This document shows, piece after piece, positions 820-38,421 of a stretch of DNA of 64,000 bases (position 1 is its first letter; each line of letters starts with the position of its first letter). Location: contig JAJYLR010000001.1 in NCBI GenBank assembly GCA_021787535.1, positions 492,321 through 556,320 of the forward strand. Reading direction: 5' to 3'. A program made the translations under genes and the position numbers. Under the pieces are notes generated by a model, which ran no database searches, was not told the origin of the DNA, and saw only the letters and a program-made list of their open reading frames with translations. Source of the DNA: a bacterium (GTDB lineage Bacteria; Patescibacteriota; CPR2; UBA1875; JAJYID01).

Positions 820-1071
820 ATGACCTAGAAATTATAGCAAAAATTTGCCGATCCCTCAATGATCTGCTAAAATTCATATATGATAACAAAACGATTTTTT
901 AGCTTTTTCTTCTTTACCGGTCTTGCTTAGCGGAAGATAGTTTGAAAATTGTTCATAAAATCTTCCGCAAGGAAGATTTTTAGATTCCGGGGGTCAAACC
1001 CGGAATGACAGGGTAGAGGAAGATTTTTTTATTTGTCATGTACCATGACTAAAGTCTAGAAAGGAGATGCG

Positions 1072-2455: not shown

Positions 2456-4159
2456 GTGAAGGAGGGTAATATAGAACTGGTAAGCTTGGGAGATTTAGAG
2501 GATCGGGATAAACTTGCTGATATAAGCAAATATTTTTTGTACTGCGTACTCGGACTAAATGTTATTGTTCTTCTAACTTTTTTAAGTTTAATTTTTTTGG
2601 CACGCAGCCAAGTTGGCGCAAATAATTTAGCAAAGATCACTCTAGGTATTGCCGTAACGGGAATCATCGTATTTTTCCCATCGCTGAAGGTGACTAAGAT
2701 GGAGCCAAAATATAATCTTTTGTTGCAATCATCTTTCATCTTGGCATATTTTGTAATTTTACTGGAGTTCACCGGCGGTACAGAGAGTTTATTTTATCCC
2801 CTAATTTTTCTTTTTATTATTTTGTCGGCTTTTTATTCACTGGTTGCCGGCATTTTAGTCGCAATCACTGCCTTTGCTTATTTTTTCTACCGCGAGCTAT
2901 ATTTAAATGGCCAAACATTAGCGCGCTTCTTTGTGCTAAATGGTTCCGGCCTTTTGACTCTTGCTTTAACTATAGTATTCTCTAGCTTGCTCGGCTTGAA
3001 ATATAGAAGAAGTACCTCAGAAAAATCAAGTCTTGAACAATATTCCAAAGATATCTCGGCTGATCAATCAAAAGATGAAGCAATTTTCGCTAATATCGGC
3101 GATGGCATATATGCAGTGAACACAAAAAGAGAGATGATACTTTTTAATCAAAGTGCAGAAAAGATCACTGGATGGAAATCAAAAGATACCCTTGGTCTTC
3201 CATGTAAAAAAATTATGAATTTAAAGGATGAGCAAAGCGTAAGCGTATGCGACAAGGACTGTCCGGCGCTTAGGGTTTGGAACACGGGAGAAAATATCAC
3301 GCGCGATGATCTCTGCTTTTTTGGAAATAGTAAAGAAGATTTAAGGATTGAGGGTACCTATGCTCCCATTAAGGATAAGGATGGAAAAGTCACCGGGGCA
3401 GTTTGTGTTTTTCGGGATGTGACTAAAAAGAAAGAAGTTGAGAGAATGCGCAGCGAATTTGTTTCAACAGCATCCCACGAGCTGCGTACGCCCATTACGG
3501 CAATATCCGGCTATATCGAACTGGTTTTGAATAATAAAGTCTGTACGGTTGACGACAAAGCAAAAGAATATTTAGGTAAAGCTTTTCAAACAGCCGCTTC
3601 AATGTCTAACTTAATTAAAAATCTGCTTGTCGTTACAAAAATCGAAGATAGAAAATTGCAATATAATGTCACTAATTTTTCTATGAAAGACTTGGTAGAA
3701 GAGGTAATAGAGGTTTTTCAAAATAAAGCTAGGGAGAAAAATATTGATCTCAAGTTTGAATCAAACCCGAACCTGACCGTAAAGGGTAAGGTGATTGATA
3801 GATCATTAAATGTCAAGGCCGACAAAGAACAAATCAGGGAAGTTTTGAATAACTTAATTGAAAATGCCATTAAATTTACTGCGAACGGAGGGGTGACAGT
3901 TTCGATCAGTTATGACAGCGACTTTGCAACCGTATGCGTTCGCGATAACGGAGTCGGCATACCTGAAACCGGGCAAAAGCATCTCTTTGAGAAGTTTTAC
4001 CAAGTTGATAATTCGGCCACAAGAGCAGTTGGCGGTACGGGTCTGGGACTCTATATCACAAGGGCAATTATAGAAGCGTTTGGCGGAAGAATATGGGTAA
4101 AAAGTATTGAAGGACAGGGCAGCAGTTTCTTCTTCACTGTACCCAGAGCACTTAGCTAA
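2456..4159 (+). CDS. sensor histidine kinase (multi-TM N-terminus, PAS, HisKA, HATPase_c)
   Basis: H-box STASHELRTPITAI; N/G boxes NLIENAIKFT...GTGLGLYI; several hydrophobic helices at N-terminus; GTG start as in ORF track. Confidence 0.85.
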   Translation: MKEGNIELVSLGDLEDRDKLADISKYFLYCVLGLNVIVLLTFLSLIFLARSQVGANNLAKITLGIAVTGIIVFFPSLKVTKMEPKYNLLLQSSFILAYFVILLEFTGGTESLFYPLIFLFIILSAFYSLVAGILVAITAFAYFFYRELYLNGQTLARFFVLNGSGLLTLALTIVFSSLLGLKYRRSTSEKSSLEQYSKDISADQSKDEAIFANIGDGIYAVNTKREMILFNQSAEKITGWKSKDTLGLPCKKIMNLKDEQSVSVCDKDCPALRVWNTGENITRDDLCFFGNSKEDLRIEGTYAPIKDKDGKVTGAVCVFRDVTKKKEVERMRSEFVSTASHELRTPITAISGYIELVLNNKVCTVDDKAKEYLGKAFQTAASMSNLIKNLLVVTKIEDRKLQYNVTNFSMKDLVEEVIEVFQNKAREKNIDLKFESNPNLTVKGKVIDRSLNVKADKEQIREVLNNLIENAIKFTANGGVTVSISYDSDFATVCVRDNGVGIPETGQKHLFEKFYQVDNSATRAVGGTGLGLYITRAIIEAFGGRIWVKSIEGQGSSFFFTVPRALS

Positions 4160-7460: not shown

Positions 7461-7483
7461 GTCATTCTGGCTTGGCCAGAATC
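7461..7483. repeat. short palindromic repeat GTCATTCTGGCTTGGCCAGAATC (family A)
   Basis: inverted repeat ATTCTGGC/GCCAGAAT; family recurs >=12x in window. Confidence 0.7.
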
Positions 7484-7660
7484 AATATTTTCATTTGCCT
7501 TCACTTGTCTAAACCGAGGTAGGGAAGTGAATCTACCACACTTAATTATGAAGGGGTGAGGAATGCTTTGTTGCGTAATACTACACTAATATGTATTAGT
7601 GTAGTGGTGGCCTCTCTTTTTATCATTCCCGCACACACGAAGATCTATTATAATCAACTT

Positions 7661-8422
7661 ATGCGTATCAATAAGTACATTGCTTCTTGCACTAACTTAT
7701 CCCGCCGAAAGGCCGAGGTGCTGGTTTTGACGGGCAGAATAAAAATAGATTCTTCGCCTGTCATTCCCGTCCGCCGAGAGTCGGGTAAACATCCGGCGGG
7801 AATCCAGTCAACTGCTGAGACCGTAACAAATTTAGCCACTGAAGTTAGTCCTTCTGACAAGGTATATTTAGATGACAAATTGATTACTCCCCAAAGATTT
7901 GTTTACTATGCGCTTAATAAACCGGTTGGGTACACAACAACGACTTCCGACCCACATGCCGAGAAATTGATTACCAACCTCGTCCCAAATGATCCGCCCG
8001 TTTTTCCGATCGGCCGGCTTGACAAAGACACCTCCGGACTTATATTTCTCACAAATGACGGCGACTTCGCCCAGAAAATGACTCACCCAAAATACGAGAA
8101 AGAAAAAGAGTATATCTTCCAAACTGACCGAAAATTATCTGAGGAATCACTTGAAAAATTGCGAAAAGGAATTGAACTTGATGACGGCATAACCGCACCC
8201 GCAAAAGTTAAATCCCTTGCCAAGGGATGGACCCTTGGCAGTCATTCTGGCCCTGACCAGAATCTATATTCCATCACCATTCACGAAGGCCGAAACCGCC
8301 AAATCCGCCGAATGATTGATGCCGCCTGCGCAAAGGTGATCACTTTAAAGAGAATTAGAGTAGGGGATTTTGAACTAGGGGATTTAAAAGAAGGAAAATA
8401 TCAAATCTTCAAGCCAAAATGA
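7661..8422 (+). CDS. rluB: pseudouridine synthase, RsuA/RluB family with N-terminal S4 domain (carries two in-frame palindromic-repeat insertions)
   Basis: MRINKYIASCTNLSRRKAEVLV S4 motif; FPIGRLDKDTSGLIFLTNDG catalytic Asp motif; EGRNRQIRRM; start moved to MRINKY (ORF track extension upstream unsupported). Confidence 0.8.
   Translation: MRINKYIASCTNLSRRKAEVLVLTGRIKIDSSPVIPVRRESGKHPAGIQSTAETVTNLATEVSPSDKVYLDDKLITPQRFVYYALNKPVGYTTTTSDPHAEKLITNLVPNDPPVFPIGRLDKDTSGLIFLTNDGDFAQKMTHPKYEKEKEYIFQTDRKLSEESLEKLRKGIELDDGITAPAKVKSLAKGWTLGSHSGPDQNLYSITIHEGRNRQIRRMIDAACAKVITLKRIRVGDFELGDLKEGKYQIFKPK
7760..7805. repeat. palindromic repeat GTCATTCCCG...CGGGAATC (family B) inserted in-frame in rluB S4 domain
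   Basis: GTCATTCCCGTCCGCCGAGAGTCGGGTAAACATCCGGCGGGAATC; near-identical copy (rc) at 9212..9256. Confidence 0.7.
8241..8265. repeat. palindromic repeat GTCATTCTGGCCCTGACCAGAATC in-frame in rluB
   Basis: family A copy; translated as GSHSGPDQNL inside catalytic domain. Confidence 0.7.
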
Positions 8423-8424
8423 TC

Positions 8425-8447
8425 GTCATTCTGGCTTGACCAGAATC
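8425..8447. repeat. palindromic repeat GTCATTCTGGCTTGACCAGAATC (family A)
   Basis: 3 nt after rluB stop. Confidence 0.7.
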
Positions 8448-8476
8448 TTCTTTATTTTCTCGAAAATTTTGCTATA

Positions 8477-9091
8477 ATGATTTCACTTGGAGGGAATGTA
8501 CCTTCTTTTTTAAATCTGCAAACCAACAAGGAAGGGAGCACCATGTACATGTCATTTTTAGACTTTGCTTATATCGTTGCTATGATGATAGTTATAGGCG
8601 TATCCGTAGCCATCATCATTGCGACAGCAAAGGGCAGGGGCGCGAGTGAGTTCTATTACTTCCTGCTCGGTTTAATCTCCTTCATCGGCGTATCCGGCAT
8701 CATTTTTAGAGCGCTCAGTATGGGAGGGGTTCTCGAAGGGCTGAGCAAAGAATTTACCTGGACTTTCTATATTGCCTTTCCGGCAATATCGTCTCTCGTG
8801 CTCCTTGCCGTTGTCTGTGTCCATGACGATTACGTCGATCTACAGAATGATAAAAGGGCGCTCGAAGACATCCAGAACAGTCTCGGCCATTACAAGCATG
8901 GTGATAAAGACCATAACCTTTTTGTTGCAATCAGCAACCTGCAAGGGCACGTGGCGAATCAGGAAGGGGTTATTAAGTCACAGGACGAGGAACTAGCAAA
9001 ATTAAGGAAAGATAACGATCTGCTTAGGCAAGAAATGGCAGATCTGATCGACTCTATAACCACGCCAACTGTTGAAGAAGTGCTTTCATAA
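8477..9091 (+). CDS. hypothetical membrane protein with C-terminal coiled coil
   Basis: 2-3 hydrophobic helices then heptad-like EELAKLRKDNDLLRQEMADL; start uncertain (alt. Met at 8543). Confidence 0.4.
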   Translation: MISLGGNVPSFLNLQTNKEGSTMYMSFLDFAYIVAMMIVIGVSVAIIIATAKGRGASEFYYFLLGLISFIGVSGIIFRALSMGGVLEGLSKEFTWTFYIAFPAISSLVLLAVVCVHDDYVDLQNDKRALEDIQNSLGHYKHGDKDHNLFVAISNLQGHVANQEGVIKSQDEELAKLRKDNDLLRQEMADLIDSITTPTVEEVLS

Positions 9092-9113
9092 CATCTCTCT
9101 ATTCAACAAAACC

Positions 9114-9146
9114 GAGGCCCGACTCGTTCGGGTCTCTTTCTTTTTC
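9114..9146 (+). terminator. rho-independent terminator
   Basis: GAGGCCCGAC-TCGT-TCGGGTCTC hairpin then TTTCTTTTTC. Confidence 0.7.
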
Positions 9147-9156
9147 TCGTTCTGCC

Positions 9157-9188
9157 AGTGGTACACTAGACTAGTCTAGTGTACCACT
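9157..9188. promoter_or_regulatory. perfect 32-bp palindrome AGTGGTACACTAGACTAGTCTAGTGTACCACT (candidate operator/structured element)
   Basis: sequence equals its reverse complement over 32 nt. Confidence 0.4.
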
Positions 9189-9211
9189 TCGTGGGATTTA
9201 TCCGCCAAATA

Positions 9212-9256
9212 GATTCCCACCGGATGTTTACCCGACCTTTGGCGGGCGGGAATGAC
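9212..9256. repeat. palindromic repeat family B copy (reverse orientation) plus partial GTCATTCTGAGTC copy at 9264..9276
   Basis: rc reads GTCATTCCCGCCCGCCAAAGGTCGGGTAAACATCCGGTGGGAATC, ~90% identical to 7760..7805. Confidence 0.65.
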
Positions 9257-9271
9257 AAAGGTGGACTCAGA

Positions 9272-10219
9272 ATGACATTGTTTTATAATGGTATTATGAA
9301 AACTTTGATAATAGTGGTTTTAATATTTTTAGATATCATTCCTCATGGCGTTCCATTTGTCTCTGATATCCAGAAAAGTCTTGAAAATAATGTTAAGGTG
9401 GAGACACATCAAGTAGCAGACAACACTAATGAACCACTCAACTTTTCACCTCTGCCGTACCAAAACAATAAATATTACACCCTGACCGCAAGCGCCAAAG
9501 CCTACATGGTGGTTGACATGGGCACGGGGGAGATATTGTTACACCATGCAGAGGACAGTCCTCTGCAAATCGCCAGCCTGACGAAACTAATGACTGCGCG
9601 ACTGCTTTTGAAAGATGGCGACTTATCCAAAACCATTACTGTTAGGGCAAGTGATTTAAATAAGGTCCCGGCAGAAGAAGCCAGGATGTGGCTGGCCGCG
9701 GGCGACAAAGTGACGTACAACACCCTGCTCCACGGGCTTTTAATCAACTCCGGGGCCGATGCTGCTGTAACCATTGCCGACAATCTGTACCCGGGCGGGT
9801 ATAACGAATTTATTAGCAAAATGAACGAAGAAGCGGCAAATCTCAACTTGAAAAACACCCATTTCGATAACCCCGTCGGTTGGGATAGCGCAAGCAACTA
9901 TTCCACCGCCCAAGACCTGCAAATCCTGGCAAGAACATTGCTTCAAAATGATACTTTTAAGAAAATCGTCGGCACAAAGAGCGAAACGGTCTACTCTGAG
10001 AATGGCAGACCGTACAATCTGCAAAATACCAACGAACTTCTAAACGGCACTACGGTTTTTGGCATCAAAACCGGCTTTACAAACGGTGCCGGGCAGTGCC
10101 TCATCGCTGCCGGAAAAGTCAAGGGTCAGAATGTTTTAACGGTTGTTTTGGGTACGGGAGATAGGTTTGGCCAGACAAAAAACCTTCTCGAATGGACTGA
10201 TTTAGTGTATAATTGGTAG
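9272..10219 (+). CDS. D-alanyl-D-alanine carboxypeptidase paralog (peptidase S11)
   Basis: signal-like N-terminus MTLFYNGIMKTLIIVVLIF; SxxK (ASLTK), SGAD (SxN-like), KTGFT; ORF-track N-terminal extension rejected (runs through repeats/palindrome). Confidence 0.8.
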   Translation: MTLFYNGIMKTLIIVVLIFLDIIPHGVPFVSDIQKSLENNVKVETHQVADNTNEPLNFSPLPYQNNKYYTLTASAKAYMVVDMGTGEILLHHAEDSPLQIASLTKLMTARLLLKDGDLSKTITVRASDLNKVPAEEARMWLAAGDKVTYNTLLHGLLINSGADAAVTIADNLYPGGYNEFISKMNEEAANLNLKNTHFDNPVGWDSASNYSTAQDLQILARTLLQNDTFKKIVGTKSETVYSENGRPYNLQNTNELLNGTTVFGIKTGFTNGAGQCLIAAGKVKGQNVLTVVLGTGDRFGQTKNLLEWTDLVYNW

Positions 10220-10224
10220 TCATT

Positions 10225-10249
10225 GTCATTCCGGACTTGATCCGGAATC
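10225..10249. repeat. palindromic repeat GTCATTCCGGACTTGATCCGGAATC
   Basis: family member; tandem with next. Confidence 0.65.
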
Positions 10250-10265
10250 CAGGTTTATTAGTATA

Positions 10266-10290
10266 GATCCTGAATCAAGTTCAGGATGAC
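10266..10290. repeat. palindromic repeat GATCCTGAATCAAGTTCAGGATGAC (family, reverse orientation)
   Basis: rc GTCATCCTGAACTTGATTCAGGATC. Confidence 0.6.
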
Positions 10291-10299
10291 AGAAGAATC

Positions 10300-11727
10300 A
10301 TGTACAAAGTAGCACTGATCGGAAAACCAAACGCCGGGAAAAGCACTCTTTTTAACACTTTGCTTAAAAAGAGACAAGCTATTACCACAAATATACCCGG
10401 CACAACCCGCGACTGGAACGAAGAAGCCGCTTCTTTTGATGGCTCCCAATTTATTCTAGCCGATACGGCCGGCATAGAGCTAAAAGTTCCGAAAGGCGAC
10501 GAACTGAAAGAAAAGGCCTATAAGAAAATCCGGCAAAACTTAAGCACAGCTGATCTTTTTATTTTTGTGGCAGATAGAGAAACCGGTATCACAGAAGAAG
10601 ACCGAAAAATTATTAAAGAAGTCAGAAAATATGGCAAAGACATCTTGCTTGTCGTAAATAAAATTGACAGCCCGAGGAATAAGCCATCTTTGGCAGAGTT
10701 TCATAAACTGGGACTCGGCGAACCGCTTGGGGTCTCAGCCGAGCATAAAAGGGGAATCGAAAATCTTTTGAATGAGATACAGAAACGAATTCCTTCTCCT
10801 GTCATCCCGAGCGAAGCCGAGGAATCCCTTATTAATCGAGAGAGAAATGGATTTCTCCATTCGTCACTCCTTGATGTCAGTCGAAATAACAAAGAGATCA
10901 AGGTGTCTATTCTTGGCCGGCCAAATGCCGGGAAATCATCGTTTCTAAATAAACTGATTAATGAAGAAAAGTTCATCGTCAGCGATATACCGGGTACTAC
11001 GAGAGACGTGAATTCAACTTATCTCGATCATGAAGGCCAGGTAATTAAATTTCTAGATACAGCAGGTCTCAGGCGCCGGGGCAAGATAGGCAAAATGCCC
11101 GGTAAAGGCAAGGAGGGTCTCATAGAAAAGTTCTCCGCTGACCGTGTCAGAAAAACCTTGGAAGAGTCCGACATCGCGCTTTTAGTTCTAGATCCGACCG
11201 AACCGATAACTTCACAGGATCTGCACGTGGCGGGCTATATCAAAGATGCGTATAAGGGAATCATAGTAGTTGTAAATAAATGGGATCTGGCAAAGGAAGA
11301 AAAGCTGGCTCACGGATATGATACGGTTGAGAAGTTTTCTCGCCTCGCTCAGCATAAACTCGACTTCCTGCCGTATGCGCCTATCATTTTTGTTTCTTCG
11401 CTGACCGGTAAAAACGTTTCCAAAGTTTTGGATCTTATTCTGGAAATCAAAAAAAGACGAGAACAAAAGATTCCTACCAGCGATTTAAATAGTTTATTAA
11501 ATGAGTCAATGGCTAGAAAGAAGCCGCAAAGCGTAGATAAACATCAGGTCAATATAAAATACGCCACGCAAACAGGCGTAAACCCTCCAGAGTTTATATT
11601 CTTTGCAAACTATCCTCAAAAAGTGCATTTTTCATACCGCCGATTTCTGGAAAACCGCATTCGGGAAAAGTGGGGCTTCACCGGTACCCCGATAAGAATT
11701 ATTTTCAAATCAAAAAGTAAGCCATAA
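10300..11727 (+). CDS. der: ribosome-biogenesis GTPase Der (EngA), tandem GTPase domains + KH-like domain
   Basis: two P-loops GKPNAGKST and GRPNAGKSS, DTAG motifs, NKxD (NKID/NKWD). Confidence 0.9.
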   Translation: MYKVALIGKPNAGKSTLFNTLLKKRQAITTNIPGTTRDWNEEAASFDGSQFILADTAGIELKVPKGDELKEKAYKKIRQNLSTADLFIFVADRETGITEEDRKIIKEVRKYGKDILLVVNKIDSPRNKPSLAEFHKLGLGEPLGVSAEHKRGIENLLNEIQKRIPSPVIPSEAEESLINRERNGFLHSSLLDVSRNNKEIKVSILGRPNAGKSSFLNKLINEEKFIVSDIPGTTRDVNSTYLDHEGQVIKFLDTAGLRRRGKIGKMPGKGKEGLIEKFSADRVRKTLEESDIALLVLDPTEPITSQDLHVAGYIKDAYKGIIVVVNKWDLAKEEKLAHGYDTVEKFSRLAQHKLDFLPYAPIIFVSSLTGKNVSKVLDLILEIKKRREQKIPTSDLNSLLNESMARKKPQSVDKHQVNIKYATQTGVNPPEFIFFANYPQKVHFSYRRFLENRIREKWGFTGTPIRIIFKSKSKP

Positions 11728-11732
11728 AAGTC

Positions 11733-11760
11733 TTGACAATCTCTTCACTTAGTGTATAAT
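11733..11760 (+). promoter_or_regulatory. consensus sigma70 promoter TTGACA-N16-TATAAT
   Basis: read directly. Confidence 0.5.
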
Positions 11761-11836
11761 ATAATGTCTGGTGAGAAAAGTATGGAAGCTTAACTCACCG
11801 GGCACGTACCTGAAAATCACTACCCAAGGAGGGGTC

Positions 11837-12097
11837 ATGAGTAAAACTGAAAGGTTTTGGGCAATCCTCGGTGCGGTCGGTCGAGGACTTTGGTGGTGTT
11901 TCAGACACCCAAAAGAGACGGCCGCCTCGCTCATAATATCCTTTTTCCTTTTAACTCTTTTCGTTAGCATCTTCTCTGAAAATTTAGCTAACGAAATCTT
12001 CGGTCGGGTATTATACACGATCGGAGTCCCTGTGATTATTAGCATTGCGCTATATATGATCATTGCAGGGAAGAAACCGGGGAAAAAGAAGGATTGA
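11837..12097 (+). CDS. hypothetical small membrane protein (86 aa)
   Basis: ATG with perfect AAGGAGG SD 6 nt upstream; two hydrophobic helices; lysine-rich C-terminus. Confidence 0.45.
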   Translation: MSKTERFWAILGAVGRGLWWCFRHPKETAASLIISFFLLTLFVSIFSENLANEIFGRVLYTIGVPVIISIALYMIIAGKKPGKKKD

Positions 12098-12191
12098 TGA
12101 ACCCAAAAACCAACCACAATCATGGACGGCAGAGATTTTATTGGTATCTTATACCTCTAATTCTCTCGCCGTCCTTTCTTTTGAAAAAGTA

Positions 12192-12220
12192 TTGACAAAT
12201 ATTTTTTATGATGTATAATG
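12192..12220 (+). promoter_or_regulatory. consensus sigma70 promoter TTGACA-N17-TATAAT
   Basis: read directly; drives GC-rich non-coding region. Confidence 0.55.
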
Positions 12221-12226
12221 GTAATC

Positions 12227-12587
12227 ATTGTTTGGTGTTTTACTGAGCCCATTGTCACGAAAAGAGAATCCCGAATTTCAAAAAAAGAACGTGAGTTTGA
12301 TAAGATGCCAAACATGACCTTTACACTTTCTCCTCAGTTCTCGGCGCCTCGCCGCCGCTTTGCGTTTATGCGTTCAGGGGGCGCAGGATGAAAAAAATAA
12401 GTCGAGAAGGAGAGGAGAAAGAAGCAGCGATTTTTCCGCGGAGAATCGCTGCGAGCAGTGGGAATTTTGGCAACATGAAGTCGACCGCCAATCTCACTGC
12501 ACCTCGCAAGGGATAGTTTATTTATCTGCACATGGCGGATAAATTGTTCTTGCGGGGCGAAAGGGGCGCATATGCGCCCCTTTTTTT
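12227..12587 (+). ncRNA. candidate structured non-coding RNA (~360 nt), unidentified class
   Basis: bounded by consensus promoter and strong terminator; locally GC-rich (>55%) in AT-rich genome; multiple complementary segments (CTTTCTCCTC/GAGGAGAAAG; GCAGCGATT/AATCGCTGC 9-bp stem); no convincing ORF. Confidence 0.35.
12563..12587 (+). terminator. rho-independent terminator
   Basis: 18-bp perfect palindrome GGGGCGCATATGCGCCCC followed by TTTTTTT. Confidence 0.8.
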
Positions 12588-12588
12588 A

Positions 12589-12617
12589 TTTACTTGGATT
12601 AGCCAAAACGATAAAAT
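12589..12617 (+). promoter_or_regulatory. putative promoter TTTACT-N17-TAAAAT, leaderless (ATG 7 nt downstream)
   Basis: read directly. Confidence 0.35.
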
Positions 12618-12624
12618 ATTAATT

Positions 12625-13245
12625 ATGAAAGTAAAAACGCTTATAGTAGGATTAGGAAATCCGGGTGAAAAATACGAAAAAACCCGACATAATGCAGGAT
12701 TTATGGTGCTGGACGTGCTCTGCAATAATTTTAAATTTGAAAAAAAATTTAATGCGGAAGTTTGCCGGCTCTCCTCCTGTCATTCCCGCGAAGACGGGAA
12801 TCTAGATTCTGAACAAGCCAGAATGACAAATGAAGGAGATATTATTTTGATGAAACCCCAAACCTTCATGAATTTATCAGGCGAGGCAGTCCAATCTTTT
12901 GCCGGTTATTACAAGATTCAACCAGGAAATATTTGGATAATCCACGATGATATAGATATTCCGTTTGGAGAAATTAGAGTGAAAAAAGGCGGTTCTTCGG
13001 CCGGACATAAAGGAGTTCAGTCGATAATTGAAAAAATGGGCACAGAAGATTTTTGGAGGTTTCGAGTTGGCGTTAAAAATAATGATTTAGCAAGAATAGA
13101 AACTGAGGATTTTGTACTGCAAAGATTTAACCCTGATGAAGCAGGAGTTTTGGATAAAATAATAAATTTAGCTGCAGATGAAATAAAACTGTTTTTAAAG
13201 GAGGGAACACTTGAGGCAAAAACTCTAAAATTGAATAAAAAATAA
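12625..13245 (+). CDS. pth: peptidyl-tRNA hydrolase (with in-frame palindromic-repeat insertion)
   Basis: MKVKTLIVGLGNPGEKYEKTRHNAGF ... KPQTFMNLSGEAV Pth signature; ~20-aa insert CRLSSCHSREDGNLDSEQARMT encoded by repeat 12779..12827. Confidence 0.85.
   Translation: MKVKTLIVGLGNPGEKYEKTRHNAGFMVLDVLCNNFKFEKKFNAEVCRLSSCHSREDGNLDSEQARMTNEGDIILMKPQTFMNLSGEAVQSFAGYYKIQPGNIWIIHDDIDIPFGEIRVKKGGSSAGHKGVQSIIEKMGTEDFWRFRVGVKNNDLARIETEDFVLQRFNPDEAGVLDKIINLAADEIKLFLKEGTLEAKTLKLNKK
12779..12827. repeat. compound palindromic repeat GTCATTCCCGCGAAGACGGGAATC + TAGATTCTGAACAAGCCAGAATGAC inside pth
   Basis: two family members fused; in frame. Confidence 0.7.
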
Positions 13246-13348
13246 GAAGAGAGCATAAAACTCTCTTCTTATTTTCAAAAAATCTCCCATTGATCAACAT
13301 CTGTCACGGAGACTTAGCCAAGTCACTGCCCATAGGCTGACTGGTGTG

Positions 13349-13436
13349 TTGTAGGGAGAAACCTACCAACAAGCAAGCAACTTAAAGGAGGGTGATTTAA
13401 GAAAGCTGAACTTGTTAGTAGGTTTCCGCCCTACAA
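13349..13436. repeat. long imperfect inverted repeat (25-bp arms, ~37-nt loop containing AAGGAGG)
   Basis: TTGTAGGGAGAAACCTACCAACAAG vs CTTGTTAGTAGGTTTCCGCCCTACAA. Confidence 0.45.
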
Positions 13437-13540
13437 AATCCCGCACCAAAAGGACTTTGAAATCCTTTCTTAGGTACGATAGAACATATTAACATATTAA
13501 AGTACTTATGTCAATACTTTTTTAATAAAACTCATGTTTT

Positions 13541-14641
13541 GTGCTTAAAATGAACGAAAAAAAGCTTAAAAAGAATAGAAAATATCTGCTGGCTCTGGAC
13601 ATCGCCTTGAACACTTTTGGATTTGAAAGATTGAAAAAAATAGAGAAAAGCGGTCTGAATTTTGAGGAAGTTTGGGAAATGCCCGCCGGACAGCTAAAGC
13701 AGAAATTGGGCAAATATAACTTTGTTGAAAAGTTGGCCAGCGAACGGGGGAAAATATACCCGGACACAGAGATTGAGAAACTGGAAAAACAAAAAATTGG
13801 CTTTATTACTATTTATGACGAAGAATATCCCAAAAATTTGAAGGAGATTTTCTCGCCTCCGGTTATTCTTTATTATAAGGGCGACTTAAACGTCTTAAAC
13901 GAAGTGTGTTTGGCAGTGGTGGGTTCGAGAAAATACACGACGTATGGGAAAAATGCTGCAGAAAAACTAGTTTACGGTTTATCTGAAAGCGGATTTACGA
14001 TCGTAAGCGGGATGGCCCTCGGGATAGACACATTTGCTCACACCTCTGCACTAAATGCCGAGGGTAAAACAGTAGCAGTGCTCGGATGCGGGCTTAACCA
14101 GCCATATCCTTCATCAAATACAAATCTTTTCCGGCAAATCATAAACTCCGACGGACTAGCACTTAGTGAATACATGCCGGGGAAACCGCCTCTCCCGCAG
14201 CATTTTCCAGCGAGAAACAGGATTATTTCCGGCCTTTCCAAAGGCATCCTAATAATAGAAGCGGGGATAAGGTCAGGGGCTCTTATAACCGCAAGAGATG
14301 GTCTGGAGCAAAACAAAGATATTTTTACCGTGCCCGGGCCGATATTCGGTGAATCTTCAAGCGGTACGAACCAGCTCTTGAAAATGGGAGCAAACCCGGT
14401 CACACAAGCAGAAGATATTATTGAATATTACGGCTATAAAACTAAGCCAAAGATAATATTAAAGCCGTCAAACAATACCGAAAAGGCTATTTTTGAAGCA
14501 CTGAATAAAGAAAAAATGCACGTTGATGACATTATTAAACACGCAAAACTTGAAAGCCAGCTGATTATTTCGACCTTGACACTTATGGAAATAAAAGGTA
14601 AGGTAAAAAACTTAGGAGGCATGGTTTATTGTTTAAATTAA
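13541..14641 (+). CDS. dprA: DNA processing protein DprA (Smf)
   Basis: VVGSRKYTTYGKNAAEKL...GMALGIDTFAHTSAL...VAVLGCGL Rossmann DprA core; C-terminal winged-helix extension. Confidence 0.85.
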   Translation: MLKMNEKKLKKNRKYLLALDIALNTFGFERLKKIEKSGLNFEEVWEMPAGQLKQKLGKYNFVEKLASERGKIYPDTEIEKLEKQKIGFITIYDEEYPKNLKEIFSPPVILYYKGDLNVLNEVCLAVVGSRKYTTYGKNAAEKLVYGLSESGFTIVSGMALGIDTFAHTSALNAEGKTVAVLGCGLNQPYPSSNTNLFRQIINSDGLALSEYMPGKPPLPQHFPARNRIISGLSKGILIIEAGIRSGALITARDGLEQNKDIFTVPGPIFGESSSGTNQLLKMGANPVTQAEDIIEYYGYKTKPKIILKPSNNTEKAIFEALNKEKMHVDDIIKHAKLESQLIISTLTLMEIKGKVKNLGGMVYCLN

Positions 14642-14653
14642 GTCCGCTCAATT

Positions 14654-14695
14654 GTCATTCAGACCGCTACCACTTTAGTGGAAAGTGGAGGAATC
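14654..14695. repeat. palindromic repeat GTCATTCAGACCGCTACCACTTTAGTGGAAAGTGGAGGAATC
   Basis: family termini with internal CCACTTT/AAAGTGG palindrome. Confidence 0.5.
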
Positions 14696-14772
14696 CCTCC
14701 CAAAAAAATAACCAATGACCAATTTCCAATATCCAACCAAATCCTAACTTTCAAATTATTGGAAACACAACT

Positions 14773-14796
14773 GTCATTCCCGCGAAGACGGTAATC
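14773..14796. repeat. palindromic repeat GTCATTCCCGCGAAGACGGTAATC
   Basis: one mismatch relative to copy in pth. Confidence 0.65.
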
Positions 14797-14856
14797 CAGA
14801 AAATGGCTTAGGCAATAAAAGATTCTCGTTTTTATGGCAATAACATAGTAGGAAAA

Positions 14857-15534
14857 ATGATTAACGAAACCGGAAGAAATATATATGATGAGCGGCCAGC
14901 CGATCTTGACTTAAAGGAGCATCAAGACCTAACCAATAGCCCACGTATTGAAATACTGAGAAAAGGATTTGAAGGCAGCACAAATGAACTGGAAGAGCTC
15001 CTAGAAAAGCATAATATTCCGCAAATGGTTAGTAATATAACCGGCCTGGATTGGAAAACTGCCTCTATTAAGCTAAGGCATACTGAGAGTCAGGCAGATT
15101 GGGAAGGAGATGATACTGTACTGGTAAACTTGGATCATGGGCCCTACTGCATAAGCGGCCTTTCCCATGAAATGGTTCATTTGCTTTTCCGCCAGAACAA
15201 CTGGCTTGAGTCCACTGAAATTTCTAAATTTATAGAAAATCATCCTGAAATGAGGGAATATTCTGCAGGAAAAGATGGCTATCCCATAGAACAAATGGTC
15301 GCATACCTCGTGCAGGATGAAATATGCAAGAAAATCGGTAAAAAAGAGGGTCTAAATATACTAGCCGAAACCGGCGGGCACGGAGATTTTGAAAAGATTT
15401 TAGATACAGAGTATGGTTCAGACATTAAAAAGAAGATAGGCAAAACAATGATGGAACGATGGACAAAGCTAGAAGATTATTCGGATGTGCTAAAATGGAT
15501 TGAATCATTGCTCAAGGAGATTGATAATGGCTAG
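14857..15534 (+). CDS. hypothetical protein with HEXXH motif (putative zinc metallopeptidase-like)
   Basis: SHEMVHLL HExxH; no other recognisable domain; stop overlaps topA start. Confidence 0.4.
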   Translation: MINETGRNIYDERPADLDLKEHQDLTNSPRIEILRKGFEGSTNELEELLEKHNIPQMVSNITGLDWKTASIKLRHTESQADWEGDDTVLVNLDHGPYCISGLSHEMVHLLFRQNNWLESTEISKFIENHPEMREYSAGKDGYPIEQMVAYLVQDEICKKIGKKEGLNILAETGGHGDFEKILDTEYGSDIKKKIGKTMMERWTKLEDYSDVLKWIESLLKEIDNG

Positions 15535-17512
15535 AAACCTAGTTATCGTCGAGTCGCCGGCAAAGTCGGCAACAATTGAAAAATACTTGGGGCCTGACTA
15601 CAAAGTTATGGCCAGCTATGGCCATGTCCGGGATTTGCCTAAAAGCCGGCTCGGCGTTGACGTAGAACATGACTTTGAACCGGAATATATCATTCCCATG
15701 AAGGCCAAGAAAAACCTGAACAATATTAAAAAGCAGGCAAAAGAAGCAAACATGGTGCTCCTGGCAACAGACCTTGACCGAGAAGGAGAGTCCATCGCCT
15801 GGCACATAGCCGAGTCCATCGATAACAAACATATAAAAAGAATCACTTTCTCGGAAATCACCAAGGACGCCATCCTGGAAGCCGTCAAAAATCCTGGCTC
15901 TCTAAATGAAGACCTCTTCAACGCGCAGCAAGCAAGACGTGTTCTGGACCGACTCGTCGGCTATTCTTTGAGCCCGCTGCTTTGGCAAAAAGTGCGAAGA
16001 GGACTGTCCGCCGGCCGAGTGCAATCCGTGGCTGTAAAGATAATTGTAGACCGGGAAAGAGAAATTCAAAACTTCAAACCGGAGGAATACTGGGAAATTT
16101 CTGTGGAACTGGATAAAAATCAGAGTAAATATCTCGCTCATTTAATTAAAATAGATGGAAAAAATGCAGAAATTAAAAACGAAAAGGAAGCCAAGAAAGT
16201 TGAATCAGATGTTCAAAACAAAACTTTCAAAGTCACAGATGTAACGAAGAAAGAAGTCAAAAGATCGCCGGCTCCGCCCTTTATAACCTCAACACTTCAG
16301 CAAGAGTCGGCAAGAAAACTGGGATTTTCAGCCAAGAAAACCATGATGCTCGCCCAACAGCTCTATGAAGGTATTAACGTAGGCAAAGGCAGCGAAGGCC
16401 TTATTACCTACATGAGAACAGACTCTCTAAATCTGTCGGCGCAGGCAAGAAGTCAAATTAAAGAATATCTTTTAAATAACTTCGGCAAAGATTACGTGAG
16501 CGAAAAGGCCAGAGTGTATAAAAAAAGCAAAGGCGCCCAGGAAGCGCACGAAGCTATCCGGCCGACGCACATCACCAACACTCCGGAAGCTATCAAAAGC
16601 TACCTAACGCCGGATCAGCTGAAACTTTATGCCCTGATATTTAACCGGACACTGGCTTCACAAATGTCGGATGCCAGATATATGCAAATCAGCGCCAAGA
16701 TCTCTGCCGGGAAATATCTTTTCAGGACAGGCGGAAGAGATCTGCTTTTCGACGGCTTCATGAAGGTTTACCTGGAAAAAGCAGAAGCCGAGGAAAAAGA
16801 CGCCAAGTTCTCAAATCTGAAAGAACTGGCCAAAGATGATATTTTGAAATATTTAAAGACGATTTCGGAGCAGAAGTTCACCTTAGCCCCTCCGAGGTTT
16901 ACCGAAGCGTCTTTAATTAAAGTGCTTGAAGAAAACGGCATCGGCCGGCCCTCGACTTACGCGCCGACTATTTCGACCATTATCGACCGCGGTTACGTAA
17001 AGCTGGAGGAACGGCGATTTCACCCTACCGAAATTGGTTTCATCGTTACGGATATGTTGAGTGAAAATTTCCCATTTGTCGTAAACGTAGACTTCACTGC
17101 GAACATCGAAAACGAACTTGATGAGATAGCGATCGGCAAAATGAAGTGGCAAAAAGCCATTGGCGAATTTTATCATCCTTTCAAGGAAGAGCTGGATAAA
17201 AAATCCGAGAAGATCGAGAGGGTGAAAATGCCGGAAAAGGAAACGGATGAGAAATGCGAGAAATGCGGCGGCCCGATGGTGATCAAGCTCGGAAGGTTCG
17301 GAGAGTTCATGGCCTGCAAAAATTTCCCCGAGTGTAAGTTCACCAAGGCAATCGTCAAAGGTACCGGTGTCAAATGTCCCGAGTGTGAAGAAGGAGACAT
17401 TATCGAACGAAAAACCCGGAAAGGCAGGACCTTCTGGGGCTGTTCCCGCTATCCGGACTGCAAATACGCTACCTGGCAAGACCCGCGAAAGAAAAAAGGA
17501 GCTTCAAGTTAA
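15527..17512 (+). CDS. topA: DNA topoisomerase I
   Basis: Toprim NLVIVESPAKSATIEKYLG, catalytic Tyr region GLITYMRTDS, C-terminal Cys4 zinc ribbons (CEKCGGPM, CPECEEGD). Confidence 0.9.
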   Translation: MARNLVIVESPAKSATIEKYLGPDYKVMASYGHVRDLPKSRLGVDVEHDFEPEYIIPMKAKKNLNNIKKQAKEANMVLLATDLDREGESIAWHIAESIDNKHIKRITFSEITKDAILEAVKNPGSLNEDLFNAQQARRVLDRLVGYSLSPLLWQKVRRGLSAGRVQSVAVKIIVDREREIQNFKPEEYWEISVELDKNQSKYLAHLIKIDGKNAEIKNEKEAKKVESDVQNKTFKVTDVTKKEVKRSPAPPFITSTLQQESARKLGFSAKKTMMLAQQLYEGINVGKGSEGLITYMRTDSLNLSAQARSQIKEYLLNNFGKDYVSEKARVYKKSKGAQEAHEAIRPTHITNTPEAIKSYLTPDQLKLYALIFNRTLASQMSDARYMQISAKISAGKYLFRTGGRDLLFDGFMKVYLEKAEAEEKDAKFSNLKELAKDDILKYLKTISEQKFTLAPPRFTEASLIKVLEENGIGRPSTYAPTISTIIDRGYVKLEERRFHPTEIGFIVTDMLSENFPFVVNVDFTANIENELDEIAIGKMKWQKAIGEFYHPFKEELDKKSEKIERVKMPEKETDEKCEKCGGPMVIKLGRFGEFMACKNFPECKFTKAIVKGTGVKCPECEEGDIIERKTRKGRTFWGCSRYPDCKYATWQDPRKKKGASS

Positions 17513-17542
17513 TGGCTATATCGTGCAAAATATGAGCATTTT

Positions 17543-17570
17543 GTCATTCTGAGCGCAGCCAAAGAATTAG
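17543..17570. repeat. palindromic repeat GTCATTCTGAGCGCAGCCAAAGAATTAG
   Basis: family termini. Confidence 0.5.
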
Positions 17571-22600: not shown

Positions 22601-23169
22601 CTATCGATCAAAAGACCGGCAAAGGCAGTCAAAACCAAGCATCTCAAGAGCAGCAGCCGAAAAAAACTCAGCCAGCGAGTATCGAAATTTCAAAAACATT
22701 CACGCCTGCAGCAAAATGGCAGGATAATAATATAAAAAGCAATATCGCAGCTCCAGCTCAAAAGCAGGACACGAAAAAGAACAAAGAACCGGAGGTCAAG
22801 ACGCAGCAAGACAATGAGATAAAAAAAGGCGGGCCTTCCGGCAATCAAGCTGAGCAAGAAAAGCCGCTTCAGAACAAGGTTAAGCCCTCAATTAAAATTA
22901 CAAGATTTACCGGCGCTGCTTCAGCGGAGAAGGCAGAATTTCCAAAGCAAGAACAAAAAACCCAGGAAGCGCCGCAAAAAAAGCTAAGCGACACCGATAA
23001 AGAACCCAATCAAGGCCAAGATAAAAGAGTAATTAATCCTGTAGGCATACCGGCTATCATGATGAAGAGGTTTATCCCGGATGATGAAAATATTAGAAAG
23101 TTGACTAGGGAAGAGTTCCTGAAACTTCAAGAGATACAGCCCAACGAGAAGATTATCATTATTGACTAG
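19693..23169 (+). CDS. membrane-anchored P-loop ATPase, TraD/VirD4 type IV coupling protein-like (also DUF87/HerA-like), with ~350-aa disordered K/Q/E-rich C-terminal tail
   Basis: N-terminal TM helices; Walker A IIGKSGTGKS, DPHGEL, Walker B FYLYVDEFQNF, ARKYKLNLTLANQYIAQ; residues ~800-1158 low complexity. Confidence 0.55.
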   Translation: MFEILIYILKGIFQLLMWTWWIIVPIIAIIAFQNHRKTKWVEKLESIVLSVRIPKNSEKGPTSAEMMFASLHGILKPIQDLKKEGAIQEHISFEMVADAKSITFYVWTPKHLQNFVEGQIYAQYPTAEISAVDDYSKNIDVDHDGIDDCVAGCELKLVRPDYFPIKTFVNFEVDPLAGITGALSKIENADEKMWIQILTRPVSDSWRDKGLAYAENLKNGTGPSLFTKAGITHGLITLPITILHGIFNVIMPAEDSKGGGGDQKLPHNVETSLACLEEKANKLGYQVKIRLVYVAKSRELARQHLRITAGAFKQFNTTIGNGFAPTKIKTGRDVLEEYRARLFTDKGFVLNIEEVASLYHLPHASVETPNIVWTSSKKGEPPANLPYEGMVAPEDLTVFAETTFRGQPKRFGIKKDDRRRHMYIIGKSGTGKSKLLEILAVDDIERGQGVGIVDPHGELVHDVLKRIPAHRVNDVVYVNPADKDFPVGFNPLETTPEFREETTSGFVVALERLFGYSWGPRLEYVLRYTVLALTYTEDATMLSIIRMLTDKDYRKKVLERVEDPVVKTFWLKEWTTYNDRFQAEAVAPILNKVGQFTASPIIRNIVGQAKGTIDFAEAINNQKILLVDLSTGKIGEDNAELLGSFIITKLQLAAMARSKIRPEDRKDFYLYVDEFQNFATKSFATILSEARKYKLNLTLANQYIAQMEETVRDAVFGNVGSLISFRVGATDASYLEREFSPVFEKNDLINLDNQHLYLNMLIDGVTTIPFSAKTINVAAPDPAKDNTEKIVQASRERYSISRQEIEDKITKWTNIDKIDIGARMDKQEKSRFEKTNEEIEQEARIKKSSQFKRTDPQKSTKQNPETIQVKKSVDPEELKKIIQKVTRPTTQSQSLAKGSSDENKQESQDNVNQVRGVQNVQNAPILKKIQEITNKESAQPSNKIPNKVEETIREKLAKQALSDSPKNRESIDQKTGKGSQNQASQEQQPKKTQPASIEISKTFTPAAKWQDNNIKSNIAAPAQKQDTKKNKEPEVKTQQDNEIKKGGPSGNQAEQEKPLQNKVKPSIKITRFTGAASAEKAEFPKQEQKTQEAPQKKLSDTDKEPNQGQDKRVINPVGIPAIMMKRFIPDDENIRKLTREEFLKLQEIQPNEKIIIID

Positions 23170-23554
23170 AGAGAAAACTCAATAAATGTAGGGAAGAGCA
23201 GGGTATTATTCACACTAATCGGTTAATATTTTATCAGCCGGACTCTTAATATTTCTATTCAAATCAAGTAATAAAAAAGTGGATTCTCTCCCCTTTTTCA
23301 AATGTAAAATTTTTAGCGCAAGCCAACTAAAGAAGCAAAGACGGCTGTAATATTTTAATTAAATAAAACAATAAACTCTTACCTCTATTCTAGAGCTGAG
23401 GGTCAAGAACTCAAAAGAAAAATATCAAAATTCACCCAAAACACTTGAAAATTCTAAGAAAGAAGGTAAGGTAACCCCGATGGACATAATGTCGTACAAT
23501 GTATCTTATGCGACATTTCGCTTACATATGCTGCGATACCTTATTTTGATCTTC

Positions 23555-24373
23555 TTACTTATAAAAAACCCTGTCTTTAATGCGCATATCCATATATGTA
23601 AGATGGTGGCCTTTAATCTCCGGGCTGTTGATAGCAGCTGCTAGATTTGCAAGTTCATGCGCCGGATCCCTTGTAGTATCAAAGGTAATATAAAAACCAA
23701 GCGTCGTTTGAACAACCGCCTCATTAAAATTATCATTAATTTCTATTTTCGTAATTTTAGCCCCCGTATCTTTAGTAAAGTTTTGGTTTAAATATTGAAT
23801 AAACCTAATAAACTCAGGAGTTACCATGCTCTTCCCTATTTCGACAGGCAGATTTTTTTTATCTTCGATTGTTACAAGATCGTTTCTCTTACCTGGTGCC
23901 ACTCCTACCACCTTGCCTTTTTCATCCACTAAATAATATTTCCCGCCGCTTAACCACTCAAGTTCCAAAACATATTCATCTAGATTAACGCTAATTCTGT
24001 CGGGATAATGTTTAGTAATTTTTAATGTTTTTAAAGCATACTTTTTCTTTAAATTTCTTTCCGCGCCATCCGTATCGAAAAAGAGAATATTGCCCTTAAA
24101 AAATTCTTTTTCCATACTAGCATTAATATCGGAGATAATTTGATCAGAAGAGAGTTCCCTTGTCCCTTTAACATCCACTGTCTTAACTCTAAAAACCCCG
24201 GAAAAAAGGATGAGATACAAAATGCCAGCCATTGATAAAAAGACAAGCGGGTAATATAAGCGAGTCATATCAAAACCGTCGGGTTCTTCTATTTCTGTAC
24301 GCTTATATACAAGTTTATTGCGGCTCTGCAATCTTTTTATTTTACCGGCCCTTCTCCCCTGCTGCCCTCTCAT
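23555..24373 (-). CDS. ftsQ: cell division protein FtsQ-like (POTRA)
   Basis: single N-terminal TM then POTRA-like region; last gene of dcw cluster. Confidence 0.7.
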   Translation of the reverse strand: MRGQQGRRAGKIKRLQSRNKLVYKRTEIEEPDGFDMTRLYYPLVFLSMAGILYLILFSGVFRVKTVDVKGTRELSSDQIISDINASMEKEFFKGNILFFDTDGAERNLKKKYALKTLKITKHYPDRISVNLDEYVLELEWLSGGKYYLVDEKGKVVGVAPGKRNDLVTIEDKKNLPVEIGKSMVTPEFIRFIQYLNQNFTKDTGAKITKIEINDNFNEAVVQTTLGFYITFDTTRDPAHELANLAAAINSPEIKGHHLTYMDMRIKDRVFYK

Positions 24374-33930: not shown

Positions 33931-34038
33931 TTTTTCTCCTTTACCCTTCCGTAGCTTTAGCGTAGGAGGGTCGTGGTCCAAACGGCTATCGCCTCCCACA
34001 TTAATTATAGTTCTCATTTTTAAGGGATTTCTCCGCTC

Positions 34039-34066
34039 GTCACTCCGTGAAGTCGGTCGGAATGAC
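34039..34066. repeat. palindromic repeat GTCACTCCGTGAAGTCGGTCGGAATGAC (family, reverse orientation)
   Basis: rc GTCATTCCGACCGACTTCACGGAGTGAC. Confidence 0.5.
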
Positions 34067-37949: not shown

Positions 37950-38210
37950 TTATCGCCATTCCCTAGATATTAGCTTCAATTTTTTTTCATGTGACCACTT
38001 CTTAGCCTGTATTTCCCTTTGTCTAGCCTCTGATTTACTGCCAAAAGGTTGCGACACATAAACTAGCTCAAATGGTCCTTGGTCTACTGCAAATTTAGCG
38101 CCATTACCAGAGTTGTGCTTTTTAATTCTCTCCACCAGATCAGTAGTCATGCCCACATATAACCTATTTGTCCTCGCTTTAGCTAAATAAATATACCATG
38201 GTTTCATCAC
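37950..38210 (-). CDS. GIY-YIG nuclease family small protein
   Basis: WYIYLAKARTNRLYVGMTTDLVERIKKHNSG GIY-YIG motif. Confidence 0.7.
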   Translation of the reverse strand: MMKPWYIYLAKARTNRLYVGMTTDLVERIKKHNSGNGAKFAVDQGPFELVYVSQPFGSKSEARQREIQAKKWSHEKKLKLISREWR

Positions 38211-38335
38211 AAATATTTCTTTATGGGCCTCTCGATAAACTCGAGGTCATTCGACTCTTCCAAACTCAAACCCTCCTAATTAATGATAATTCATCTAATA
38301 TCTTGGCTTGCCATGAGCGAACATAGTGAGTCGAA

Positions 38336-38421
38336 TGGTGGCGGGGGAGGGATTCGAACCCCCGAAGGCAAATGCCAGCAGATTTACAGTCTGCCCCGGT
38401 TGACCGCTTCGGTACCCCGCC
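38336..38421 (-). tRNA. tRNA-Tyr (anticodon GUA), long variable arm
   Basis: GGCGGGG/CCCCGCC acceptor, anticodon loop CUGUAAA, extended variable arm, T-loop UUCGAAU, CCA. Confidence 0.85.

Follow-up and report, generated by a model that had tools for sequence, protein, structure and literature searches.

Oriented hairpin repeats, probably of the CGTC-tagged type known from Neisseria, in a candidate-phyla-radiation-type genome and partly in frame within its housekeeping genes

Introduction

What kind of repeat lies behind the short palindromes with GTCATTC ends that recur in a 64-kb stretch of DNA from a bacterium of the candidate phyla radiation type (contig JAJYLR010000001.1, positions 492,321 to 556,320; hereafter the window, in whose coordinates all positions are given), does it act as DNA or as RNA, and does it still move? 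A preliminary description, made from the sequence alone, had read these palindromes as a mobile family with at least 12 copies, similar to transposable elements of the miniature inverted-repeat kind (MITEs) or to repetitive extragenic palindromes (REPs), and had placed most of them in a 10-kb stretch. We find 17 units of a single, oriented hairpin repeat in the window, and these are very probably CGTC-tagged repetitive palindromes, also described as Ssn-related motifs (SRM), of the type represented in Neisseria by dRS3 and the Neisseria Transformation Sequence (NTS), i.e., small oriented DNA hairpin repeats. The window is all the DNA of this genome that was analysed, and the absences reported below at the level of the genome hold for the window only.

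The repeat kind itself is already known, from work published in 2013 and 2025 and, for dRS3 and the Rickettsia palindromic elements (RPEs), from earlier. Di Nocera, De Gregorio and Rocco (2013) defined a superfamily of CGTC-tagged REPs with the families CGTC-1 to CGTC-4, which share a CGTC or TGTC tag (CCTC being allowed), a stem of 8-9 bp that opens with an A-T and a T-A pair, a loop of 4-5 nt and a 3-nt tail with the consensus CCA (PMC3733652). Their dimers are predominantly inverted pairs with the heads outside (HH), while pairs with the tails outside (TT) are rare and tandem pairs negligible; the repeats lie near the 3′ ends of open reading frames (ORFs), and some are found in frame in genes, including pseudouridine synthase genes (PMC3733652). 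The authors equate both dRS3 and the Rickettsia element RPE-6 with CGTC-1, and RPE-4 with CGTC-4. The hosts in that survey were Proteobacteria, Chlorobi, Bacteroidetes, Spirochaetes and Thermotogae, and no transposase was associated with the repeats (PMC3733652).

More recently, Chenal et al. (2025) reported that the 28-nt NTS, CGTCATTCCCGCGMAVGCGGGAATCYRG, contains the dRS3 repeat, and they introduced the term SRM for the wider class (PMC11893778). The nuclease SsnA, a single-domain GIY-YIG protein of 94 aa, binds one strand of the motif, as single-stranded DNA only, with a cut that falls a few nucleotides upstream of it. Cutting requires the three bases that precede the palindrome, binding requires the C that follows it, and neither RNA nor duplex DNA is bound (PMC11893778). 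In N. meningitidis, 2% of the NTS copies lie inside genes (PMC11893778). Target duplications are mentioned in neither of these two papers (PMC3733652, PMC11893778).

Results and discussion

Units were collected with a scan for a head, followed by a hairpin and a matching 3′ end, which returned ten clean units, and seven further degenerate or long units were added by reading the sequence, giving the total of 17 (Table 1). The motif is present at all 13 positions named in the preliminary description, whose list lacked the units at 983-1009 (-), 10801-10826 (+), 10849-10890 (-) and 12805-12827 (-). Two of its entries carry the motif but have to be redrawn, since the feature at 9264 is a truncated unit at 9257-9276 (-) and the one at 34039 is part of a 42-nt unit at 34025-34066 (-). 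Furthermore, GAATGAC, which had been taken for a terminus of the repeat, is a unit on the opposite strand, often within an inverted pair. The concentration in 10 kb was borne out, with 15 of the 17 units between 7461 and 17568, and the family is also present outside this cluster, namely at 983-1009 and 34025-34066, in the related contig L005 (contigs and loci used for comparison are denoted by L and a number), which is rich in units, and in metagenomes, among the matches listed.

The counts of two core motifs exceed those in all dinucleotide shuffles of the window: GTCATTC occurs 15 times, against 6.9 ± 2.6 in the shuffles, none of 100 of which reached 15, and TGTCATYC occurs 14 times, against an expectation of 3.55 ± 2.0 and a shuffle maximum of 8. 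The sub-families distinguished earlier were found again by an independent repeat finder, which recovered D1 (12777/14771, 93% identical over 30 nt), D8 (7457/8421, 93%) and likewise D2. For the 45-nt pair at 7760 (+) and 9212 (-), the earlier estimate of about 90% identity was accurate, as the two differ at 5 of 45 positions (89% identical).

All units follow one layout, in which an unpaired head (T/C)GTC leads into a stem of 7-9 bp that encloses a loop and is followed by an unpaired tail C(T/C)A. Base pairs were counted in 24 units from the window and its relatives, with positions indexed inward from head and tail because a MAFFT alignment had gapped the 3′ stem. In this set, the GTC of the head is invariant (24/24) and preceded mostly by T (by C in the 8425 unit and by A in the 8241 unit), the first two stem pairs are A-T and T-A without exception (24/24), the fourth is C-G in 23 of 24, and the C of the tail, also present in 23 of 24, is mostly followed by TA or CA. 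The loops of the short units measure 3-7 nt, where the superfamily definition has 4-5 nt, and in the long forms (7760, 9212, 10849, 14654 and 34025) at least 20 nt separate the outer stems.

The remaining stem pairs, 3 and 5-8, covary (T-A/C-G, C-G/T-A, G-C/C-G, G-C/A-T). At positions 5-8, 92% of the cells are paired, whereas shuffling the 3′ partners among the units in 2000 rounds gave a mean of 61% and a maximum of 75%. Such changes on both sides of the stem, together with the high degree of pairing, argue that the hairpin is preserved even as its bases change. The hairpins are more stable than shuffles when folded as DNA (z of -2.8 to -4.5 in 7 of 10) and likewise when folded as RNA.

Head and tail differ, with GTC at one and C at the other, and this asymmetry gives each unit an orientation. 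It is retained on either strand relative to transcription, as seen in six (-) units that lie in a block of (+) strand genes. Some units stand alone, and others form inverted pairs whose heads face outward; the window has three such HH dimers (10225/10266, 10801/10849 and 12779/12805), no TT dimer and one tandem pair, which involves a truncated unit. Among the matches listed for metagenomes, which were obtained with the pattern of one sub-family, 140 clusters include 23 HH, 5 TT and 2 tandem arrangements. The earlier account of a REP-like palindrome family was right, but it had overlooked the head/tail asymmetry, the coding copies and the match to the Neisseria repeats.

With the exception of more variable loops, the features of the CGTC superfamily are all found here, that is, the tag, the A-T/T-A start of the stem, the tail, the HH dimers, sites at ORF 3′ ends and in-frame copies, and membership in the family therefore appears secure. 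The unit closest to Neisseria, at 12778-12805 (TGTCATTCCCGCGAAGACGGGAATCTAG), matches the 28-nt NTS consensus at 26 of 28 positions, and the bases that are key to NTS and SRM, GTC before the palindrome and C after it, are conserved in the units. Architecture and orientation signals are also those of dRS3/NTS, as is the clustered rather than even spread of the copies. As compared to the superfamily as described, the window differs in its candidate-phyla-radiation-type host, in loops of 3-7 nt, in the presence of long forms of 42-45 nt and in the coexistence of several stem sub-families within 10 kb.

A number of observations weigh against this assignment. First, no unit in the window matches the NTS consensus with at most one mismatch, the best being 12778-12805 with two. 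Second, the published SRM pattern, HGTCWYN(0-2)YYVSBRHN(0-5)WNVSBRGN(0-2)RNCYNB, detects one of the 17 units (the pth unit at 12779, against 0.085 matches per shuffle) and leaves the other 16 outside. Third, the 64-kb window has no gene for a single-domain GIY-YIG protein of the Ssn type (cd10448), and its sole GIY-YIG protein (86 aa, encoded at 37953-38210 (-), Pfam E 5.6e-16) scores higher against E. coli YhbQ (62.8 bits) than against the GIY-YIG protein of the Novosphingobium plasmid pNL2 (43.5 bits). Moreover, in 80 loci that encode close relatives of this protein, about five canonical units were counted in 673 kb, compared with 17 units in the 64 kb of the window. Lastly, two units, at 7464-7482 and 8428-8446, precede T-rich tracts and weakly match a terminator scan.

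With respect to the pattern, sub-families with the stems ATTCTGGC, ATTCCGGA and ATCCTGAA lie outside it, and such units flank Ssn-type genes in metagenome loci; the published SRM pattern is too narrow for this genome. As for the nuclease, the pNL2 gene has inverted CGTC repeats on both sides, which is the Ssn architecture. Three GIY-YIG ORFs were found in metagenome loci that had been selected by the repeat, among the matches listed; all are of the pNL2 type (42-78 bits), each adjoins a unit, and each scores less than 28 bits to the window protein. The best solved relative of the latter is the UPF0213 protein BH0048, its gene is not flanked by canonical units, and the 80 loci of its relatives stem mostly from lineages of the candidate phyla radiation and from Omnitrophota. 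Given this affinity to YhbQ and UPF0213 and the scarcity of units near its relatives, the gene at 37953-38210 was rejected as the source of the cognate nuclease.

The two terminator-like units would fit another explanation, according to which the repeats are RNA elements whose hairpins at the 3′ ends of transcripts terminate transcription or keep 3′ exonucleases from degrading the mRNA, a role that has been suggested for classical REPs. Some effect at the RNA level may therefore exist. Five intergenic sites lie 2-30 nt past the stop codons of (+) strand genes, namely the scpB-like, rluB-like, S11 peptidase, dprA and topA genes, and transcription of many REPs has been argued for by Di Nocera et al. 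(PMC3733652). However, conservation of the unpaired head and tail does not depend on which strand is transcribed, as in the six (-) units in the (+) block, and six of the 17 units lie within coding sequences. Most units also lack a T tract, and the hairpins that act as strong terminators in this region (at 9114, 12559, 1361 and 18390) are not repeat units. A terminator role was rejected, the scan having given only the two weak matches. In addition, an Rfam scan of the whole window returned tRNAs only and no family match for the units, and SsnA does not bind the RNA form of its motif (PMC11893778). We regard a role of the units as RNA elements as improbable.

The coding copies deserve closer consideration. 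Six of the 17 units, representing four insertions, lie in an rluB-like gene, in der and in pth, and each leaves the reading frame open, with no stop codons. At the first site in the rluB-like gene, an insert of 21 aa, which includes the 45-nt unit, is missing in the orthologues of L001 and L003, and in L005 the site is occupied by 13 extra aa that include a 24-nt unit. At the second site, a 12-aa insert with a 24-nt unit is missing in three orthologues, L001 and L003 among them. In der, a heads-out pair lies within the variable linker between the two GTPase domains. The pth gene also carries a heads-out pair, and in an alignment of the 20 closest Pth proteins, the insert is absent from 12, whereas the other eight have inserts in the same loop that are built from different units and read CHAREGGNLDSGQARMT, DSRLRGND or LDSSLREVTRNDKE. 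The coding copies occupy permissive loops or linkers of three housekeeping genes. They use differing reading frames, and the two copies in frame 1 (7760 and 10801) have a tail other than TAG, which would be a stop codon. Because the frame stays open, the copies should be translated as inserts of 8-21 residues, as in Rickettsia; translational bypass or splicing was considered for them and found unneeded for the same reason.

This high share of intragenic copies (6 of 17, as opposed to 2% of NTS in N. meningitidis) sets the window apart from Neisseria, as do the lack of an Ssn-type gene and the 16 units outside the SRM pattern. There is a parallel with RPE-4 and RPE-6 of Rickettsia, which by description are in-frame palindromes that leave housekeeping genes intact in a host-dependent bacterium with a small genome, although the host lineage is unrelated. 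Full-text literature searches with the repeat-derived peptide strings gave no matches, and searches with the DNA strings led to Chenal et al. (2025).

The preliminary description had named MITEs and REPs in one breath. Of these, the likeness to REPs holds, since the units have all the defining features of the CGTC-tagged REP superfamily, while the likeness to MITEs does not: the long terminal inverted repeats of a MITE (15-30 bp) are absent, the units being hairpins of 23-45 nt, and there is neither a target duplication of fixed length nor, in the window, a transposase. One could nevertheless suppose that a REP-associated tyrosine transposase (RAYT) of the IS200/IS605 type mobilises the units as classical REPs, or that a DDE transposase mobilises them as MITEs. 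Their overall form of tag, hairpin and inverted dimers, which is that of REPs, would fit, and so would the related locus L011, where a Y1_Tnp gene lies 1 kb from a GIY-YIG gene. GTAG REPs with their RAYT genes (REPtrons) likewise combine a tag with a hairpin, form inverted dimers and intergenic clusters, and are recognised as DNA hairpins by a small nuclease. In the window, however, the tag is (C/T)GTC, followed by AT, and not GTAG, a Pfam scan of 28 ORFs detected no transposase family, Y1_Tnp included, and the proposed partner is a GIY-YIG nuclease. Most copies lack flanking repeats, and where these exist they measure 11-17 bp; also, as noted above, the 2013 survey found CGTC repeats without a transposase. 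Movement by either type of transposase is hence extremely improbable, and a TA target duplication in the style of Tc1/IS630 was rejected, as the 5′ flank is never TA.

Have the CGTC-type units moved recently at all? The alternative that they are inert relics of a spread in some ancestor, which today do nothing but decay and have neither a function nor a partner protein, is unlikely in our view, though it carries more weight than the two preceding ones. It is consistent with the degenerate state of the units at 10801, 10849, 14654, 14773 and 17543, with the fact that the units at the rluB and pth sites are common to genomes with only 61-77% identity in those proteins, and with the lack of an Ssn-type gene in the window. 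On the other hand, pairs of copies with 89-93% identity are found at unrelated sites (7457/8421, 12777/14771 and 7760/9212), the expanded 45-nt form has been copied since its origin, and compensatory changes keep the stems paired. Furthermore, two Levybacteria contigs from independent assemblies, L009 and L010, carry a 99-nt insertion relative to the 99.8%-identical L008, an old assembly with other gaps, which weakens its reading as an empty site. Together with the varied units in one and the same loop of Pth, the near-identical copies and the Levybacteria polymorphism support the mobility that the preliminary description had proposed.

These insertions hint at how a CGTC-type unit might be copied. 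The 99-nt insertion, which is bounded by a 17-bp direct repeat, comprises a heads-out pair together with 10 and 7 additional nt. Shorter direct repeats, of 11-12 bp, border three more sites, namely the window unit at 983, a pair in L005 and a single unit in L011. In total, direct repeats of 11-17 bp are found at 4 of 26 copies or sites in this lineage (window and relatives), where about 0.07 would be expected. Their length is not fixed, and in a broad metagenome sample of 133 clusters, among the matches listed, repeats of at least 9 nt occur in 1.5% of the flanks, as compared to 1.2% of controls, and repeats of at least 11 nt in none. Target duplication as a general feature of the family was thus discarded, and the flanking direct repeats are retained as an unexplained trait of these four copies only. 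In D2, three coding copies share the leader TCYYCKCCT upstream of GTC, although they are read in different frames.

In this context, a second kind of small-hairpin insertion is polymorphic between near-identical Levybacteria contigs: at 10397-10425, L008 has a 29-nt insertion, missing in L009 and L010, which is made up of an unrelated hairpin, CCAGCACCGATTCGGTGCTTGG, and a 7-bp direct repeat, ATTTTAT.

By analogy with the system described by Chenal et al. (2025), a unit would act as DNA and not as RNA, and its hairpin would form when the strand becomes single during replication, repair or DNA uptake. A single-domain GIY-YIG protein of the Ssn type would then bind the stem and the C that follows it and cut a few bases upstream of the GTC head. 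Because the window has no such gene, the gene for this partner may lie elsewhere in the genome or may have been lost. New copies could arise if the piece that is copied begins 7-10 nt upstream of the head, close to or exactly where the Ssn-type enzyme would be expected to cut, and only those copies that leave genes intact would survive. We hold with low confidence that the copied piece begins at this distance and that insertion in this lineage can duplicate the target. Taken as a whole, it is a doubtful but conceivable scenario that the repeats still spread here by a route undescribed for CGTC repeats, in which such a piece, containing a single unit or a heads-out pair, is inserted with a target duplication of 11-17 bp, maybe even without a cognate Ssn-type nuclease, and thereby decorates essential proteins with extra loops.

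Placement of the units and neighbouring features

The units are listed in Table 1. The first 23 kb of the window (1-23 kb) form the block of (+) strand genes referred to above.

Table 1. Repeat units in the window, with strand and genomic context
Unit	Position	Strand	Context
Single unit GTCATTCCGGGTTTGACCCCCGGAATC	983..1009	-	Intergenic; between 12-bp direct repeats AGGAAGATTTTT at 970-981 and 1017-1028
Single unit GTCATTCTGGCTTGGCCAGAATC	7461..7483	+	Starts 14 nt past scpB-like stop at 7446
45-nt long form	7760..7804	+	In frame in rluB-like gene; reads VIPVRRESGKHPAGI
24-nt unit	8241..8264	+	In frame in rluB-like gene; reads SHSGPDQN
Single unit	8425..8447	+	Starts 2 nt past rluB-like stop at 8422; 93% identical to 7461 unit
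45-nt long form	9212..9256	-	Intergenic; 89% identical to 7760-7804
Truncated unit GTCATTCTGAGTCCACCTTT	9257..9276	-	Abuts 9212..9256 unit
Left unit of HH dimer	10225..10249	+	Starts 5 nt past S11 peptidase stop at 10219
Right unit of HH dimer, GTCATCCTGAACTTGATTCAGGATC	10266..10290	-	Ends 9 nt before der start codon
Degenerate unit, left half of HH dimer	10801..10826	+	In frame in der; reads VIPSEAEES
Degenerate 42-nt long form, right half of HH dimer	10849..10890	-	In frame in der; sub-family of 34025-34066
Unit in pth	12779..12802	+	In frame; reads CHSREDGN
Unit in pth	12805..12827	-	In frame; reads LDSEQARMT; HH dimer with 12779 unit, 2-nt spacer
Long degenerate unit	14654..14696	+	Starts 12 nt past dprA stop at 14641
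Unit with one stem mismatch (GGTAATC)	14773..14797	+	Intergenic; 93% identical to 12779 unit
Decayed unit GTCATTCTGAGCGCAGCCAAAGAATT	17543..17568	+	Starts 30 nt past topA stop at 17512
42-nt long form	34025..34066	-	Between rplK and rplA

The gene for ribosomal protein L1 (33097-34086, -) has a longest ORF of 329 aa, of which the Pfam match covers the sequence only from residue 134. The N-terminal extension of this ORF reads through the unit at 34025-34066, so that the true start probably lies downstream and gene callers may over-extend this one.

Two perfect palindromes of the form TACACTA-N8-TAGTGTA, at 7582-7603 and 9162-9183, lie upstream of the rluB-like and the S11 peptidase genes, respectively; none are expected by chance, and they may be operators of one regulator. 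The 270-nt gap between pth and dprA (13270-13500) contains no ORF and has no Rfam match; a regulatory region or a small RNA not yet described could lie there. At about 23000-24500, a sign change in GC skew, with a maximum of the cumulative skew, coincides with the switch of gene orientation from (+) to (-). This point, from which the repeat cluster is 6-16 kb away, may be a replication terminus.

The YhbQ-like gene is itself part of a recurrent module, in which a tRNA gene is followed by a long hairpin that starts immediately behind the tRNA 3′ end, C(A/T)TTCGACTC ... GAGTCGAA(T/G), with a loop of 36-92 nt, and then by a YhbQ-like GIY-YIG gene of 84-90 aa. It is found at 37950-38421 in the window, between tRNA-Tyr and tRNA-Thr/rpmG, at 8225-10273 in L006, at about 9650-10255 in L008 and L009, and at 9650-10315 in L011. 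In L006 it is repeated two or three times in succession, as would be expected of a mobile or duplicating module linked to tRNA genes. Another tRNA-related feature is a 28-nt copy (93% identical) of the 3′ end of tRNA-Glu, with the two sequences at 566-593 and 738-765 and the copy 172 nt from the gene, which looks like the scar of a tRNA-integrated element.

Two further arrangements were noted in the loci used for comparison. L140 has four tandem units with a spacing of 91 nt at 2713-3010, and L143 has arrays resembling half-sites (GTCATCCTGAAT..., ...GTTCAGGGTGAC) at 1-300 and 650-900, on either side of an Ssn-type GIY-YIG gene.

Conclusions

New in this work are the host group, the high intragenic share, and the coexistence of stem sub-families that lie mostly beyond the published pattern, as well as the lack of an Ssn-type gene in 64 kb and the direct repeats that flank some copies of this lineage. 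A search of the accessible literature returned no report that joins the candidate phyla radiation with REPs or palindromic elements, and the present assignment would extend the repeat family to these bacteria, which are reduced and depend on hosts. The relatives nearest to the window that bear a name are 'candidate division WS5' and 'Patescibacteria group'. That so many copies lie in frame, in pth, in der and in a gene for a pseudouridine synthase, parallels the situation in Rickettsia. For annotation, strings like VIPxxxGIQ, LDSxQARMT or DSRLRGND, when met in a predicted protein, should be read as repeat-derived.

The link of the CGTC family to a site-specific nuclease for single-stranded DNA is only recent, and that one copy in such a distinct host is near-identical to the Neisseria sequence points to either a very conserved recognition system or horizontal spread. 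The direct repeats and the co-copied leader, if they are general in this lineage, would bear on how these repeats multiply, and the insertion route outlined above, if true, would provide a first handle on how the CGTC repeat superfamily moves.

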